64,000 nt of DNA from Escherichia phage ukendt, in sequence record NC_052661.1. One strand, written 5' to 3'. Shown here in pieces: positions 6,989 to 18,090 of the stretch. The notes under the pieces are model-generated. The model searched no databases. It was not told the origin of the DNA and saw only the letters and a list, made by a program, of their open reading frames with translations. How positions within the stretch are numbered: the stretch's first letter is position 1; each line of letters starts with the position of its first letter. The position numbers and the translations under genes were made by a program.

Positions 6989-7462
6989 TTAAAGTTTATA
7001 AATAGTCACATCGTGACCTGTTTTTACTAAAGTTTCTTCAATCATCACTTGGATGATAGCCCAATTACCTCCAGCATATCCAGCGCCAATCATAGGTAAG
7101 CCGATCTTACATTTTTGGTCACGGAGAAGCAAATCATTAGCCATAGCTATTAGTGCATCGTAAAGTGCATCATAGTCCAACTGACGACCTTTAGCATTGT
7201 ATCCGTAACGGTATTGTCCGTATAGATTATATACCAAAGGGTCTGATTGTTCGTCTGGCAACCCTAAACTAAAAGAACCTAACTTACTTTGATCACCAGC
7301 CATTGTGTCTAAATCTGCCGCATATGCATAAGGGAATGCTCGTTTAATTTGCGGAGCAATTCCTGCTCCCATATTACACATACAATTGCAACAATGAGCA
7401 ATAACAGTTACTTCTCCTGCTTTAGCGGCATCAATAAGATTACCTGTTTTCATTTTAAGCAT
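6989..7462 (-). CDS. macro-domain protein (ADP-ribose binding/hydrolase)
   Basis: 157 aa; VIAHCCNCMCNMGAGIA and IGLPMIGAGYAGG match the two macro-domain Gly-rich loops. Confidence 0.6.
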   Translation of the reverse strand: MLKMKTGNLIDAAKAGEVTVIAHCCNCMCNMGAGIAPQIKRAFPYAYAADLDTMAGDQSKLGSFSLGLPDEQSDPLVYNLYGQYRYGYNAKGRQLDYDALYDALIAMANDLLLRDQKCKIGLPMIGAGYAGGNWAIIQVMIEETLVKTGHDVTIYKL

Positions 7463-10251: not shown

Positions 10252-12062
10252 AGATGTTTCTCCCTTTGCAAAACTTCCTGCATTTTACCTTTGTTATAAG
10301 GCCGTGAATTAGGGGCAGAAAGATACCCTGATACACGTCTAACTACAGAAATAGTTTCTTCTTCATGGTTGCCACAATTAGGACACTCAAACCCTTTAGC
10401 CGTTGCCTTAAATTCTCCATGAAAACCACACTTAAAGCATTGATCCACGGGCTGATTAATACCAAAATAGTGAATATGTTCATAAGCGTAGTCTACTAAA
10501 GTCTCCAAAGCTTCTAAGTTATTCTTTAAGTTTGGTGTTTCGACATAACTTATGTTACCACCATTGCTAATCTGTGCAAAACCTGCTTCATAATCCCATT
10601 TTTCAAAAGGATTTGTTACCAACCATACAGGTTGATGAAAAGAATTAGTAAGATAATCTCTTTCTACCAGACCTGGATATTTTTCATTTAAAGCTGTTGC
10701 AAATTTATAGCACAAGGATTCTGCTGGAGTTCCATAAAGACTAAATGCCAACTTAGATCGTTCTTTAAACACAGCACACACATCTTTCATATGTTGCAGA
10801 ATGTTTTTACCTAGTGCCTTTTTATCTTTTTCCTCTGGATAAAGGATTTCCAAAGCTTCGGCAAGACCTACATAACCAATACTAATAGAAGCATAACCAC
10901 CTTCAAACAAAGCACCAATTTCATCGTTGGCATTTAAACGCGCTAAAGCCCCTTCCATGAAAAGAATAGGGTTTTCAGATGCTTTGGTATGTCTGATACG
11001 GTTTACACGTAGCATGTGAGCATCGTAGGCTATCTCCATATGTTTATTAAGAAGATCGGTGAAAGATTCTCCTTTACTTCTCGCTTCCGCAGCAATCAGA
11101 GGCAAGTTGATAGAAACTACTCCAAGGTTGAATCGTCCATCATATTTTTCTCCTTGTTCGGTGGCATAGTACGACAAAAAGGAACGACAACCCATACTCG
11201 TAACAGTACCATCTGCTGATCCCGTAACTTCTTTGTTCAAAGGAACAGAAATAAAGTCTGGATAAATACGATCAGCACAACATGCCAAAGCTTGTTGCTT
11301 AAGGTCATAGTTAGGATCACTAGGTTTCATGTTAACGCCTTCTTGTAAAAAGAAAATAACTTTAGGGAATACAGGCGTTACATGATCTTTGCCTAGACCA
11401 TTACTATGCACTTTAAGATAGTTAGCTGTGATCATTCTGCCAAAAACAGAGGTATCCAGACCCATACTGATTGTAATAAAAGGAGATTGTCCATTTACAC
11501 TCATTAAAGTATTAACCTGATACAAGAGAGTTTGCATAGCATCATATACATCTTGTTCGGTCATTTCCAGGGCTTCTTTCCTTGCATAACAGCCGTAGCG
11601 ACGTTTGGTTATCTCCATGTTTTTAAGGAAACTAGCTTCAACATAAGGACTAAGACCTTTATCAATGTGCGCACACGTTTGACCTCCATACTGACTGGAG
11701 GCAACAGCTTGAATGATTTGAGTTAGCACTGTAGTAGCTACCCCAATAGATTTTGGTTTTTCTATCTGTGCGGCTCCGATCTTAAAACCATTCTCTAACA
11801 TATCTTGATAATTAACAAGACAACAGTTTGTAAGAGGAGAGAGCAGATAATCCAAGTCGTGAATATGCCCAAAACCTTCTGTATGCCATTCTGACAAGTT
11901 TTTTGGCAGTATCTGTGTCATTGCCATATGTTTGCTTAAAATCCCCGCCAAGAGATCCCTATGCGTGTTAACGAGGTGGGAAGGTTTATTTGCATTCTCT
12001 CTAGTGTATGTTTCTGAAGTGCGATCTAAAAAAGAAAAAACATCTTGGTACAAATCTTTCAT
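10248..12062 (-). CDS. nrdD: anaerobic ribonucleoside-triphosphate reductase (class III)
   Basis: 604 aa; C-terminal glycine-radical motif RRVSGYL preceded by CxxC..CxxC zinc ribbon. Confidence 0.85.
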   Translation of the reverse strand: MKDLYQDVFSFLDRTSETYTRENANKPSHLVNTHRDLLAGILSKHMAMTQILPKNLSEWHTEGFGHIHDLDYLLSPLTNCCLVNYQDMLENGFKIGAAQIEKPKSIGVATTVLTQIIQAVASSQYGGQTCAHIDKGLSPYVEASFLKNMEITKRRYGCYARKEALEMTEQDVYDAMQTLLYQVNTLMSVNGQSPFITISMGLDTSVFGRMITANYLKVHSNGLGKDHVTPVFPKVIFFLQEGVNMKPSDPNYDLKQQALACCADRIYPDFISVPLNKEVTGSADGTVTSMGCRSFLSYYATEQGEKYDGRFNLGVVSINLPLIAAEARSKGESFTDLLNKHMEIAYDAHMLRVNRIRHTKASENPILFMEGALARLNANDEIGALFEGGYASISIGYVGLAEALEILYPEEKDKKALGKNILQHMKDVCAVFKERSKLAFSLYGTPAESLCYKFATALNEKYPGLVERDYLTNSFHQPVWLVTNPFEKWDYEAGFAQISNGGNISYVETPNLKNNLEALETLVDYAYEHIHYFGINQPVDQCFKCGFHGEFKATAKGFECPNCGNHEEETISVVRRVSGYLSAPNSRPYNKGKMQEVLQREKHL

Positions 12063-12162: not shown

Positions 12163-13524
12163 TTATTGTTTGGAGAGGAATTGTCTTCCCATGATCTTAC
12201 CGTTCTTTACAGCGGTCCCATCATGTCCATTATAATCCCAAGTTCCATCGATATTACGCAAGAAGCTATCACGAACAGTGTAGGCTTTACCGTTCTCTAC
12301 TTTACTTTCTTCAACAATGATTGCCATAACAAGCTTATTTTCAATTTCGGTAGTAACTGATTCTTTAATACCCTTTGTAACTTCACGATCATATTGGATA
12401 TAAACTCGCTCCTCGGTCACTTGCACGTCTACCACATTTTTAAATGTGTATGTCTGCTGTGTAGTGTAAAGGACACGAACGACACTCTTCTTACCTACTG
12501 GCGGCTTCTGACGACGCTTGCGGTAACGTGGTTTAGGGTTGTTAGTTGGAAGCCAACCAACAATATCCCGATCCTGTTCATGATGACCCCAAGTGAAATG
12601 CGTAGCCGATCCACTATCCGTAGTTCCGTCACGGAAGAGAACTTCTACGTGACCACCACAAGGGCGGTGTCCACCATTATGATAGTTGTATTTTGCCGTG
12701 CGCGGGAGAATGAAGTATTCTTTAATCGCCCATTCTTCCAGATCGTGATTATTGTCAACACTCCAGTTGAATACTGTCCCCTTAGCAACCTCTGTTTTAC
12801 CGTTGTTGAAGCGAACCTGCACGAAATCTTCTGAAGGCATAACACCTGTATTAGGAATATAGGTAGGCTCTGTGTCTTCTGGTTCAAAAGTCTCTTTTTG
12901 TTGTTCCACATCTTCCACTTTTCTTACATGTTTAGTATAAAACATATCTTTAAACTCCTGTGCTTCAACCTCAACTGCAAATTCATGTTCTCTGACAGCC
13001 GGAGGCACAAGGCTTCCACACTCAAGATGTAGAGCATCCAGACCTGCCATTTTATCGTAAAAGATAACTTTTCGATACTTCTTACCGTCTTCTGGAATAG
13101 CAGGGTCTACTCGTTTAAGACGGGAAGCATCGCTTTTAGTCCAAAAACTCTTCCCTGTTGTATTATTGAAAGTAGTAATCATTTCTCCAATTTCTTCTTC
13201 AGAAAGGTTACTAGTGTCTGTGTAAACATCTTCAATTTTTAGCATTTTAGTTTTCTTAAAAATTAAATCTAGCATTGCATCTCCTGTAAAACGTAGTTCA
13301 TTATCTCCTACTGTCGGCTCTCCAGAAAATTCATCGGTCCCGACTGTGTGACAGATGTATGGAAAATTTGTGCAACCGTGTAAAAGAGCATATTGTCCTG
13401 TAAGTTTAGGATCTGTCTCTTTAGTCCAACCATATGCAATCTCAATAGCTTTGCAAAGCCTATCGAACAAGCCCCGATTGTTTGCCGCTGTTACCAAATC
13501 TTGCTTATGTGCATATACATTCAT
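12163..13524 (-). CDS. hypothetical protein (weak RNase III-like signature)
   Basis: 453 aa; ELRFTGDAM resembles the RNase III ERLEFLGDA signature, no other support. Confidence 0.5.
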   Translation of the reverse strand: MNVYAHKQDLVTAANNRGLFDRLCKAIEIAYGWTKETDPKLTGQYALLHGCTNFPYICHTVGTDEFSGEPTVGDNELRFTGDAMLDLIFKKTKMLKIEDVYTDTSNLSEEEIGEMITTFNNTTGKSFWTKSDASRLKRVDPAIPEDGKKYRKVIFYDKMAGLDALHLECGSLVPPAVREHEFAVEVEAQEFKDMFYTKHVRKVEDVEQQKETFEPEDTEPTYIPNTGVMPSEDFVQVRFNNGKTEVAKGTVFNWSVDNNHDLEEWAIKEYFILPRTAKYNYHNGGHRPCGGHVEVLFRDGTTDSGSATHFTWGHHEQDRDIVGWLPTNNPKPRYRKRRQKPPVGKKSVVRVLYTTQQTYTFKNVVDVQVTEERVYIQYDREVTKGIKESVTTEIENKLVMAIIVEESKVENGKAYTVRDSFLRNIDGTWDYNGHDGTAVKNGKIMGRQFLSKQ

Positions 13525-14323: not shown

Positions 14324-15916
14324 TTAACGATCCTCTCTGATTTGATTAATCTTACGAGCAAGGGCAGCTATAAGTTTATCTTCTTCGGATATAGGAGCCG
14401 TGCTCTTACCTAAACGATGCATGTCTAGAATCTCTTGAACAGTCCGGTTCCATTGTAGACATTTAATACAACGTGTATGTGCAACATACAGAAGATTTCG
14501 TTCTGATTCTTCAAGACCTACCCACTCACCCTTCTTATCATAATTAGAAGGAAAGTCATTTGCAACAATAACCTGATCCCACTCCAAACCTTTTGATTTA
14601 TGGGCCGTAGTTAAAGTAACTTTAGCCGTTGGAGAGTTACGGTGCATACGTAAAGTGTATGCAATATTATTAGCTTTACCAGAAACAACAATGTTTAAAA
14701 GTCGTTTTGCATCAGGATCTGATTCTGCACACTCTACAAATTCTTCCCAAGAAGTGTAAGGTAGAACTGTCTCATGCTTAACTTTGTCCAAATCACCTCT
14801 ACGTAAAGCATTAACACTATCAACCATAGAAATGAAATCTTTGGTATCTACGTTAATAATAATCTCTTCTCCGTTAGCGATTCGATCCATAGCTTCGAGC
14901 AACAGGGTCAAATTCTTACGGAAAATAATGGTGTAAGGTTTACTATAATCTACCACATCAGAATGAAAACTTCCAGTGACAGTATCATAACCTTTCCCTA
15001 CCAGCGGATGCTTCAGAGGTGAGCGATCAGAAAGGATCGCATTAGCAATGTCCGCAACTTTAGGACCAAAGCGAAAACAAGCTGTCAGAGGCAACTCAAC
15101 CCCATATGTAGCCGTTTGCTTCATCATGTTCTGGCTTCCACGGAACTGATAAATACTCTGAAATTCATCACCCACAACAACAATACGTTTAGCCGATTTA
15201 GCATTGCGAAGGATAGACAGGAATGCAGGGTTAACATCCTGGAATTCATCTCCAAAAATAATATCGTATCCTAAATCTTCTTTACTCAATTCAAAGAGTT
15301 TCACATAGGTGTCATGAGTCATAATGGTTTCTGATTTAGGATCAATACGCTCACGCCAAAGTTGCTTCGCATATTTAACAACTTCGTTAATAAGTTTTTG
15401 TTCGTTGATGTTCTTACGTTTAAGATCTGACATATGCACTTTAGGAAAATGTTTATGTCCAATATGTTCATCGTCAGAAAACTCATATTTAGCTAAAGTT
15501 TGTTTTACCATTAACCCGATCATTGCACGAGTCAGTAGCACTTTACCATTCTTATCAATCAAGTTCTGAATCTTGAATTTTTTGGCAATCTCACTACCAG
15601 TTCCAGCTACGTTAACATATTGGCCTTCTGGACGAGACAATTTGTGTCGAAGGTTTTGTGGAAGACGCTGGTAACAGATTGAATGTAGCGTTCGGCACAT
15701 AACATTAGGCGGCATTTTACGTCGAGCTTCCTCTGCCATACTTTTGTTAAACGCCAAGTATAGAATACTATCATTTGTGCCATTAGCCAACATATACAGT
15801 GTTGACGTTTTACCTGATCCAGATTTAGCTTGAATTGTAACGAAACGATTTTCTTGATACCCACTTTCAATAGCGTATTGTTCATCGGTAGGTGTAAAAC
15901 TCAATTGTGTAGACAC
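14324..15916 (-). CDS. SF1 DNA helicase (UvrD/Dda-like)
   Basis: 530 aa; Walker A AKSGSGKTS near N-terminus, DEFQ-type Walker B. Confidence 0.6.
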   Translation of the reverse strand: MSTQLSFTPTDEQYAIESGYQENRFVTIQAKSGSGKTSTLYMLANGTNDSILYLAFNKSMAEEARRKMPPNVMCRTLHSICYQRLPQNLRHKLSRPEGQYVNVAGTGSEIAKKFKIQNLIDKNGKVLLTRAMIGLMVKQTLAKYEFSDDEHIGHKHFPKVHMSDLKRKNINEQKLINEVVKYAKQLWRERIDPKSETIMTHDTYVKLFELSKEDLGYDIIFGDEFQDVNPAFLSILRNAKSAKRIVVVGDEFQSIYQFRGSQNMMKQTATYGVELPLTACFRFGPKVADIANAILSDRSPLKHPLVGKGYDTVTGSFHSDVVDYSKPYTIIFRKNLTLLLEAMDRIANGEEIIINVDTKDFISMVDSVNALRRGDLDKVKHETVLPYTSWEEFVECAESDPDAKRLLNIVVSGKANNIAYTLRMHRNSPTAKVTLTTAHKSKGLEWDQVIVANDFPSNYDKKGEWVGLEESERNLLYVAHTRCIKCLQWNRTVQEILDMHRLGKSTAPISEEDKLIAALARKINQIREDR

Positions 15917-16454: not shown

Positions 16455-16808
16455 CTAGTTTACATCGTTTAGAGCATTACCAATCTTTAAGATAATAACA
16501 TCATTAAGAGCTTCTTCTCCATTAAGGCCAGAGAAAGCAGGAGTAACGAAAGTTACCATATAATAATGGTCTTCTTGTAGAATTGCGATAACGCCGTCTA
16601 GTTTAACATCTCCTGTGAAACGAAAAACTTTCAACTTTTGTTCTAAAGGAAGATCTCCTTCAACATTTAAAACCATATCTCCGACACCAAACTTTTCTGC
16701 CCCGATGTAGATGTAAGCTTGGTCCTCTTTTTTATGATAATACAATGTTGCTTGTTTGTCTTGTAGTGTTGTGATACCAAACACATCTACATCAATAATA
16801 TTTTTCAA
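16455..16808 (-). CDS. hypothetical protein
   Basis: 117 aa ORF. Confidence 0.5.
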   Translation of the reverse strand: MKNIIDVDVFGITTLQDKQATLYYHKKEDQAYIYIGAEKFGVGDMVLNVEGDLPLEQKLKVFRFTGDVKLDGVIAILQEDHYYMVTFVTPAFSGLNGEEALNDVIILKIGNALNDVN

Positions 16809-16820
16809 AAAATTCTCCTC

Positions 16821-17364
16821 TTATTTTGTGTTGACCTTATTTCGCATTAACCTGTGGGATACAGAGTTGCGAGATCTGTTTAGAACCTTACCAATCCCTG
16901 CATGACTATACCCTTCACTATTTAACTTTTCAAGAATCTGGTCTTCTTCCTCTGTCCAGTAGCGGCGTTTAGCTTGTCTATCATCCACACCATACATGAT
17001 AGGTTGCTTTACATCCATCACTTTTAGCAATCTGACAGCCTCTTCCGCTTTCTCTTTTTTTGAAACGGAGATAAGGGATTAAATTCTCAAGCAATCTTAT
17101 CACACTTTCTCTGCTGCTAACATTGATATTATACATCAAATTATCATATTTTTCAGCCCAAGCTACGCGCGATGTGAAAGAGACAGTATATCCATAACTT
17201 TCCAACTCTTTAGCCAAATCGGTCATTTCTTCTGCCGATCTCTCGTGTTGTGTAAGGTTTACTGTGTAGGAGTCTGAAGTCTCCCTGTTTCTGCTTATAA
17301 TAGACCCATCACAATCTATGCAACCTGCGTAGTAAGCATAAAACAGTTGTTCTTTTATGTCCAC
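16821..17364 (-). pseudogene. LAGLIDADG homing endonuclease, split by a frameshift at an A7 run
   Basis: Upstream ORF carries YYAGCIDCDGSI (LAGLIDADG-like); the downstream frame opens at the A7 run 17055-17061 and encodes an HTH-like tail. Confidence 0.45.
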
Positions 17365-17368
17365 AATA

Positions 17369-17731
17369 TTAACCTAAACACATACGTGCGATCAGACCCT
17401 GGATGAGTTTATCTGCTTCTTCACGATCATAGTCGGTATCTTCTATACCACCATCTTCGTCACGATAAACTTTACCTTCCAGGTACCCAGCATCGATCAA
17501 ACCAATAATCAAATCAAACTGCCAGCAAGAGTTACCGAAAGGGCGTTTTCCACTGAAACTGTCTTCTTCTTCCCAAAGTGTAGAGAGCAGTCGTCTGAAA
17601 TATTCACGCACAGTAACAGTTCCAAGATCATCGTCTTCAAAAACAACATCTAAAGCGTCTGGTTCAGCTTTCTCTACAACAGGCACATAACGTTGACCAT
17701 TAATAACAACATCTACAATCGTTTCTCTCAT
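17369..17731 (-). CDS. hypothetical protein
   Basis: 120 aa ORF. Confidence 0.5.
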   Translation of the reverse strand: MRETIVDVVINGQRYVPVVEKAEPDALDVVFEDDDLGTVTVREYFRRLLSTLWEEEDSFSGKRPFGNSCWQFDLIIGLIDAGYLEGKVYRDEDGGIEDTDYDREEADKLIQGLIARMCLG

Positions 17732-18090
17732 TTTTCCTCCTTCTTGTATTCTAAGAACATGTCAACTTCATAAGCTGTCCGTTCATTAAATTTACTAGGA
17801 TCTACTAAAATAAAAAGTTGTTTATTTATATCTTGAAACTCTTTTACTACAATGTAAAGGTGTTTCTTACAAGAGAAGCCTGTTGCTTGATAAGCATCGC
17901 CCCAATCATCCACACCTTTTAATGTTTCTACATACTTACATTTTATTTTATCTTTACCGTCTTGGTAAAGTGCTTCACCTCCGAACCATGTGAAGAATTT
18001 AGTGCGATCTGCCCCAACCTTAAAGCCGTCACGAGCAAAAACACCAGCAGAGGCTAATAACAGCAAGGCAAACAGCACTTTTCTCATCAC
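17728..18090 (-). CDS. secreted protein
   Basis: 120 aa; signal peptide MMRKVLFALLLLASAGVFA. Confidence 0.5.
   Translation of the reverse strand: MMRKVLFALLLLASAGVFARDGFKVGADRTKFFTWFGGEALYQDGKDKIKCKYVETLKGVDDWGDAYQATGFSCKKHLYIVVKEFQDINKQLFILVDPSKFNERTAYEVDMFLEYKKEEK

Follow-up and report, generated by a model that had tools for sequence, protein, structure and literature searches.

A LAGLIDADG homing endonuclease gene of Escherichia phage ukendt, split by one extra adenine, is probably a young pseudogene

Two small neighbouring genes of Escherichia phage ukendt, the phAPEC8-like Phapecoctavirus from which our window (the whole 64-kb stretch of DNA that was analysed) originates, are best explained as the two parts of one broken gene. 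The locus would be a free-standing homing endonuclease gene encoding 180 aa, with an I-CreI-like LAGLIDADG domain, a flexible linker and a C-terminal helix-turn-helix (HTH) domain. In phAPEC8-like phages it occupies a variable slot, flanked on both sides by a conserved early gene. In ukendt alone, the A6 tract coding for Lys102-Lys103 would have gained one A by replication slippage; translation would then leave the frame after residue 103 and stop 24 codons on, and helix α4, the linker and the HTH domain would be lost from the product. We consider it probable that this was a recent and real A6-to-A7 insertion, which inactivated the gene and did not create a recoding site. The gene would thus be a very young pseudogene, found at the degeneration stage of the usual cycle in which homing endonuclease genes invade, become fixed, decay and are lost. 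[quoted passage not shown]

The split gene and its intact relatives

The whole gene (16821..17364, minus strand) is 544 nt long in the window, one base over the length of the intact allele of relatives, which has 543 nt and encodes 180 aa. The 5′ ORF bears YYAGCIDCDGSI and reads ...LIPYLRFKKRE..., encoded by TTC AAA AAA AGA GAA. Its residues 1–103 are native and comprise the LAGLIDADG core, including D19, Q39 and K102, and what follows is a run of out-of-frame codons that ends in TGA, 24 codons past the second Lys, in agreement with the initial annotation of this DNA, which had described a LAGLIDADG-like ORF at 16981..17364 stopping soon after FKKRE. The 3′ frame, open from about 17079 and ending at 16821, encodes helix α4, the linker and the HTH domain and is translated as KKEKAEEAVRLL...WTEEEDQILEKLNSEGYSHAGIGKVLNRSRNSVSHRL...NTK (stop); a second rendering of the same frame runs from KKEKAEEAVRLLKVMD to WTEEEDQILEKLNSEGYSHAGIGKVLNRSRNSVSHRLMRNKVNTK, with the same end. 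The 77 codons previously counted in this downstream frame were recovered as E104 to K180. The frame had also been said to open exactly at the A7 run, which is the only inaccuracy in that description, as it opens six codons upstream of the run, after a TAA (SLISVS-KKEKAEE).

Table 1 Positions in the window of the parts of the endonuclease gene and of the genes on either side of it.
Feature	Position	Strand	Description
5′ piece	16981..17364	-	127-aa ORF with GTG start; ukendt gp029 (QHR64825.1 / YP_009986685.1)
3′ piece	16821..17030	-	69-aa ORF from TTG; ukendt gp028 (QHR64824.1); GAGG 8 nt upstream
A7 homopolymer, site of the extra base	17055..17061	-	T7 on the plus strand; A6 (AAA AAA = K102 K103) in relatives
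LAGLIDADG motif	17302..17334	-	Residues 11-21, YYAGCIDCDGS; placed by alignment to I-CreI
C-terminal three-helix HTH / Myb-like domain (predicted)	16827..16970	-	Residues ~132-179 of the repaired protein; Pfam and AlphaFold
Conserved upstream neighbour	17369..17731	-	120 aa, no Pfam match; its stop codon is the 5′ boundary of the variable slot
Conserved downstream neighbour	16455..16808	-	117 aa, TTG start, no Pfam match; its ribosome-binding site is the 3′ boundary of the slot

The A7 run is the sole A7 within the 64-kb window, and deletion of one A in silico gives a 543-nt ORF of 180 aa. Because the repaired protein is 99–100% identical to the single annotated CDS of relatives, the break at the homopolymer does not reflect a chance pairing of two ORFs. 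When related phage genomes were compared at the DNA level, A6 and an uninterrupted ORF were found in eight out of eight. The stretch is annotated as one 543-nt CDS in KKP 3954, Schickermooser, 10C3_SA_NWU, iGC_PHA_EC001 and MirsaeidiM_Esher1; in WPEC4 the DNA is intact but the CDS has been called from an internal ATG, 536P1 has A6 too, and WPEC1 reads RFKKEKAEE in frame. An alignment of the window with six relatives showed A7 versus A6 as the sole frame difference, with otherwise three SNPs among the seven sequences, and the extra A is the only private change of the ukendt allele in this gene.

The protein collection gave the same picture, with the in-frame product (180 aa, or 134 aa from the internal ATG) on ~110 contigs versus one contig with a split gene. 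The exact 180-aa protein (P0001) was present on 23 contigs, and the exact 127-aa and 69-aa split products on one contig each on record, from phage ukendt only. The initial annotation had proposed looking for A6, A7 and A8 variants among orthologues as a check on frameshifting, and A6 was found in every other copy.

More distant sequences were also informative. Homologues at 50–77% identity are all single ORFs (175–191 aa), the pattern F-K-K-x-K-A is invariant over the junction among the six closest homologues, and K102 is invariant in 48 family members. At the DNA level the homologue with 77% identity has AAA AAA GAA, in frame; homologues with 50–57% identity encode Lys-Lys as AAG AAG or AAG AAA, and therefore the slippery run is not conserved. 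Dozens of further clusters (50% identity), again single chains with the same end-to-end architecture of ~175–200 aa, were retrieved by an exhaustive profile search.

Many database entries (P0004–P0012, and WPEC4 at L006 928-1332) are called from the ATG of M47 as a 134-aa 'helix-turn-helix domain-containing protein'. We rejected this internal-ATG form as a real gene because it is without the LAGLIDADG motif and the sequence is conserved from the N-terminus across the family. It follows from the same N-terminal conservation that the GTG start, which gives 180 aa, is the correct one.

Family and fold of the repaired protein

Searched alone, the repaired protein matched LAGLIDADG_3 of Pfam at residues 10–94 with 20.1 bits, below the gathering score of 22.5 bits, and HTH_38 (residues 132–175, E 2.4e-4) and Myb_DNA-binding (E 1.6e-3), both likewise under their gathering scores. 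It also matched PHROG 16747, a group of unknown function, at 7e-46, and gave weak sequence matches to I-MsoI, I-CreI and I-CvuI in which the alignments cross the repaired junction uninterrupted. Use of the family as a whole strengthened these signals. Aligned by hhalign, the 48-member family alignment matched I-CreI with a probability of 97.3%, and D19, Q39 and K102 aligned with I-CreI D20, Q47 and K98, which we take to be catalytic residues. The family profile retrieved I-MsoI at 7e-22 and I-CreI at about 3e-9. Within the LAGLIDADG motif, A13, D17 and G20 are invariant in the 48 homologues, at least 90% of which also have D19; taken individually, 21 of the 48 matched LAGLIDADG_1 in Pfam, 10 matched LAGLIDADG_3 and 8 matched HTH_38.

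The AlphaFold model (mean pLDDT 79.5) has an α-β-β-α-β-β-α-α core at residues 3–115, composed of helices at 3–18, 44–56, 85–98 and 103–115 and strands at 21–26, 31–36, 61–68 and 75–82, followed by a disordered linker (119–131) and a three-helix bundle (138–149, 154–160 and 165–179). The top 46 matches of this model in the PDB, obtained with Foldseek, were all I-CreI, I-CvuI, I-MsoI or engineered derivatives such as E-DreI and single-chain I-CreI, with a probability of 1.00 over ~115 columns and an rmsd of 2–4 Å for the top matches. Taken together, the profile, AlphaFold and Foldseek results identify the gene product as an I-CreI-like LAGLIDADG nuclease of the single-motif type, which carries an HTH domain for DNA binding at its C-terminus. 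The earlier description, of a LAGLIDADG homing endonuclease that would reach about 180 aa once joined and end in an HTH segment, is upheld by the profile and fold evidence. As there is one motif per chain, a homodimer is expected by analogy, and the intact enzyme presumably cuts DNA and is mobile.

With respect to these elements, the frameshift site lies between helices α3 and α4, and the 127-aa product keeps all three of the mapped catalytic residues (D19, Q39 and K102). The truncated product is presumably inactive; given that those residues are kept, complete loss of its function is something that we infer.

Free-standing LAGLIDADG enzymes that carry an added HTH domain make up a sizeable uncharacterised family of dozens of clusters (50% identity), most of it apparently borne by phages. 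No papers were found when the literature was searched for LAGLIDADG in combination with Phapecoctavirus. We suggest that ukendt gp028 and gp029 be joined under a single annotation, as a frameshifted LAGLIDADG-HTH homing endonuclease pseudogene, and that the intact orthologues, now listed as 'hypothetical protein' or as 134-aa 'HTH domain proteins', be renamed LAGLIDADG endonucleases of 180 aa with a GTG start.

Origin and consequences of the extra adenine

A single-base homopolymer difference seen in one deposited genome only, in a gene without any other private change, is also what would be observed if the phage itself had A6 and an intact gene, the extra A having been introduced by consensus calling at the homopolymer. 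The initial annotation, too, had allowed for a sequencing error here. Errors of this sort at a 7-mer are, however, uncommon with Illumina data. The genome of ukendt is a CLC and SPAdes assembly of Illumina NextSeq reads, with a listed coverage of ~438x (PMC7552041), and no other conserved gene is split by a frameshift in the 64-kb window, despite its 40 A6 and 27 T6 runs. This last point was established with a tblastn scan for split ORFs, used instead of a raw list of indels between the window and 536P1 and anhysbys, which mosaic divergence made too noisy. When all ORFs of 70 aa or longer in two relatives were searched against the window, no other genuine gene was found to be frame-broken: of five flags, the endonuclease was the only real gene, the rest being antisense or upstream non-coding stop-to-stop segments. 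The depth of Illumina coverage and the lack of any other split gene favour a real insertion over a consensus error, which we regard as rather unlikely, and we infer that the extra A is really in the phage DNA, having arisen in nature or during propagation.

One-base homopolymer differences from relatives (e.g. T6 versus T5, A5 versus A6 and C5 versus C4) were seen in the window at 7462, 16812, 19535, 30148, 31704, 32261, 33524 and 33810. No conserved ORF of 70 aa or longer is split by any of these eight, and those at 7462 and 16812 lie outside coding sequence.

If the insertion is real, the question is whether the full-length enzyme could still be made or the pieces put to use. The initial annotation had raised a programmed +1 frameshift at this site. 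In such a ribosomal shift at AAA AAA AGA, the P-site tRNA-Lys would re-pair one base forward while a slow AGA occupies the A site, the 180-aa enzyme being the functional product. In favour of this, tRNA-Lys can re-pair perfectly on A7, the two frames overlap suitably, and a slow-to-decode codon in the A site generally favours +1 shifts (reviewed in PMC5009743). Yet a need to shift exists in ukendt only, the ~110 contigs and eight genomes being in frame with A6, and the diverged homologues are without the A-run. Nor is AGA the rare codon that it had been taken for: it is the second most used Arg codon, accounting for 17% of Arg codons in the long ORFs of the window and for 7 of the 15 in the endonuclease gene, and the gene-bearing relative 536P1 encodes a tRNA-Arg(UCU) in its tRNA cluster. 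There is also no SD-like sequence, which could act as a stimulator, within about 10 nt upstream of the A-run. A recoding signal would be conserved and A7 is a singleton, which leaves programmed frameshifting unsupported and, in our judgement, with a practically negligible probability. A -1 frameshift on A7 was rejected as well, since only a shift of +1 or -2 brings the ribosome back into frame. No tRNA genes were found when the window and the syntenic loci of relatives were scanned for them, and the 11 tRNAs of ukendt are placed outside the window.

Low-level rescue is a different proposition, in which slippage between A6 and A7 toggles the enzyme, or a small amount of transcriptional or translational slippage yields a little full-length protein (a 'savior indel'). 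Homopolymers do mutate reversibly, compensatory frameshifting at a low level has been documented at indels in runs, an example being herpesvirus thymidine kinase with its G7 run (PMC5009743), and an active endonuclease can be costly, which would make attenuation conceivable. Set against this are the single A7 allele among ~110 in-frame copies, with no sign of recurrent switching, and the nature of the rescue needed: it would have to be of the deletion type, with one A lost from the transcript, and A7 is under A8. In reporter assays, slippage by E. coli RNA polymerase went undetected on runs below A8, and none of the poly(A) runs examined gave rescue of the deletion type (PMC6260861). Starvation for AGA is also unlikely. 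A trace of leaky product is at most conceivable and nothing suggests that the phage uses it, so that we hold rescue or switching of either sort to be very unlikely. In its most novel form, the A6/A7 tract would attenuate a costly endonuclease or turn it on and off reversibly, with low +1 shifting at AAA AAA AGA supplying just enough enzyme in the A7 state. A phage homing endonuclease gene would then contain a contingency locus, but we would give this form only the slightest chance.

The pieces might finally work as they are, the 127-aa product as nuclease core and the 69-aa HTH protein, made from a start of its own, either alongside it or independently. The 5′ piece does keep D19, Q39 and K102, and a plausible ribosome-binding site precedes the 3′ ORF, which is an annotated gene. 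That the split is a singleton, that the 5′ piece has lost helix α4 and gained 24 unrelated residues, and that the family members are all single chains leave this arrangement next to no probability. Inactivation by a recent insertion, which the initial annotation had put forward as the simple alternative to frameshifting, fits the comparative data, and the split gene would then be an ordinary singleton homopolymer frameshift, of little importance beyond annotation.

The variable slot and related systems

The gene lies in a slot at 16809..17368 of the window, between the two conserved neighbours listed in Table 1. It is present in about 12 of 69 related records; in most records the slot holds instead a DUF4326 gene of 369 nt that is unrelated to it (phAPEC8 gp037; Pfam E 1.3e-21; L008 906-1274) and is often annotated as 'NrdA-like'. 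The slots of AV126, nepoznato and DIJ07P2 (L007 909-1021, L020 and L021) are 'empty' except for the final ~100 nt of the endonuclease gene, the three phages having in common a ~440-nt 5′ deletion of it. WPEC1 (L009 885-1682, minus strand) has an endonuclease ORF joined after residue ~160 to ~105 unrelated residues, giving 265 aa, which could be either a rearrangement or an assembly artefact; the WPEC1 assembly is 161 kb long and has several matching places. Independent nonsense mutations in relatives had been named beforehand as a sign of decay, and independent damage is seen in the 5′ deletion of three phages and in the fusion allele of WPEC1.

Within the eight gene-bearing genomes, nucleotide diversity (π) is 0.0014 inside the gene versus 0.018–0.021 in the adjacent flanks, a more than tenfold difference. 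No flank SNP on either side tracks the presence of the gene, and no co-conversion tract is visible. The low diversity of the gene, together with the absence of tracking SNPs in its flanks, would fit a cassette on shuffled backgrounds that has spread recently. Presence or absence at a fixed slot, low diversity and independent damage fit the homing-endonuclease cycle of invasion, decay and loss. In distant phages (L016/L018 2647-3000) an endonuclease homologue sits directly 3′ of a DUF4326 gene, and this position hints that the DUF4326 locus may be the target of the endonuclease or its preferred landing site. Alternation with the DUF4326 gene in the slot suggests a testable target for homing experiments.

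Several other features of these genomes were noted along the way. The gene at 17728..18090 (minus strand), upstream of the neighbour of the slot, has two very diverged alleles, with π of about 0.20 compared with about 0.02 next door, and is a mosaic boundary near the nuclease gene in gene-bearing phages. A short, highly divergent patch at 12534-12790 of the window, with many small indels relative to 536P1 and anhysbys, lies in the orthologue of anhysbys gp045 ('ribonucleotide reductase'). In 536P1 (L010 11692-12472), ~780 extra bases are found with respect to the window (about 11180-11190) and anhysbys, in the region of the gene for the large subunit of anaerobic ribonucleotide reductase; candidates for this extra DNA are an intron, an intein and a further endonuclease insertion. 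One metagenomic relative has a T5orf172/DUF723/CapR-type gene inserted upstream (L015 489-1508), as well as a UvrD-type helicase with Hint and Intein_splicing matches (L015 4436-6528), and its sequence suggests that this helicase may carry an intein which is absent from the helicase of the window (14324..15916).

The resemblance of the ukendt site to programmed +1 sites such as prfB (CUU UGA C) and yeast Ty1 (CUU AGG C) is superficial. It has a P-site codon that allows re-pairing, an Arg AGR codon next and overlapping frames; unlike those sites, it has neither a conserved need to shift nor a conserved sequence, there is no SD-like stimulator upstream and its A-site codon is not rare, and we do not count it as a member of this class.

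The closest likeness of the protein is to I-CreI, I-MsoI and I-CvuI, the single-motif homodimeric LAGLIDADG enzymes of group I introns in algal organelles. Like these, the ukendt-type enzyme has one LAGLIDADG motif per chain and a predicted α-β-β-α-β-β-α core, and the PYLRFKKEKA helix of the repaired protein matches PFLKLKQKQA of I-CreI. Unlike theirs, the phage gene is free-standing and outside any intron, sequence identity is only about 18–25%, and a predicted HTH/Myb-like domain follows a flexible linker where I-CreI has C-terminal helices and a loop.

In its organisation and history the gene is like those of the Seg and Mob proteins of T4 and the HEGs of ICP1, in which the nuclease and the DNA-binding domain occupy opposite ends, the usual layout of free-standing phage homing endonucleases, and which are frequently inactivated by frameshifts (PMC10448857). 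With these it also shares a fixed slot, presence that varies between close relatives, and damage by frameshift or deletion. It differs from them in alternating with a DUF4326 gene in its slot and in adjoining no essential gene, and from other free-standing phage HEGs, mostly GIY-YIG, T5orf172 or HNH, in that its nuclease is a LAGLIDADG enzyme. The direct analogue of the split gene of ukendt is the pair gp115/gp116 of ICP1, a nuclease ORF and a DNA-binding ORF separated by a frameshift (Barth et al. 2023, PMC10448857).
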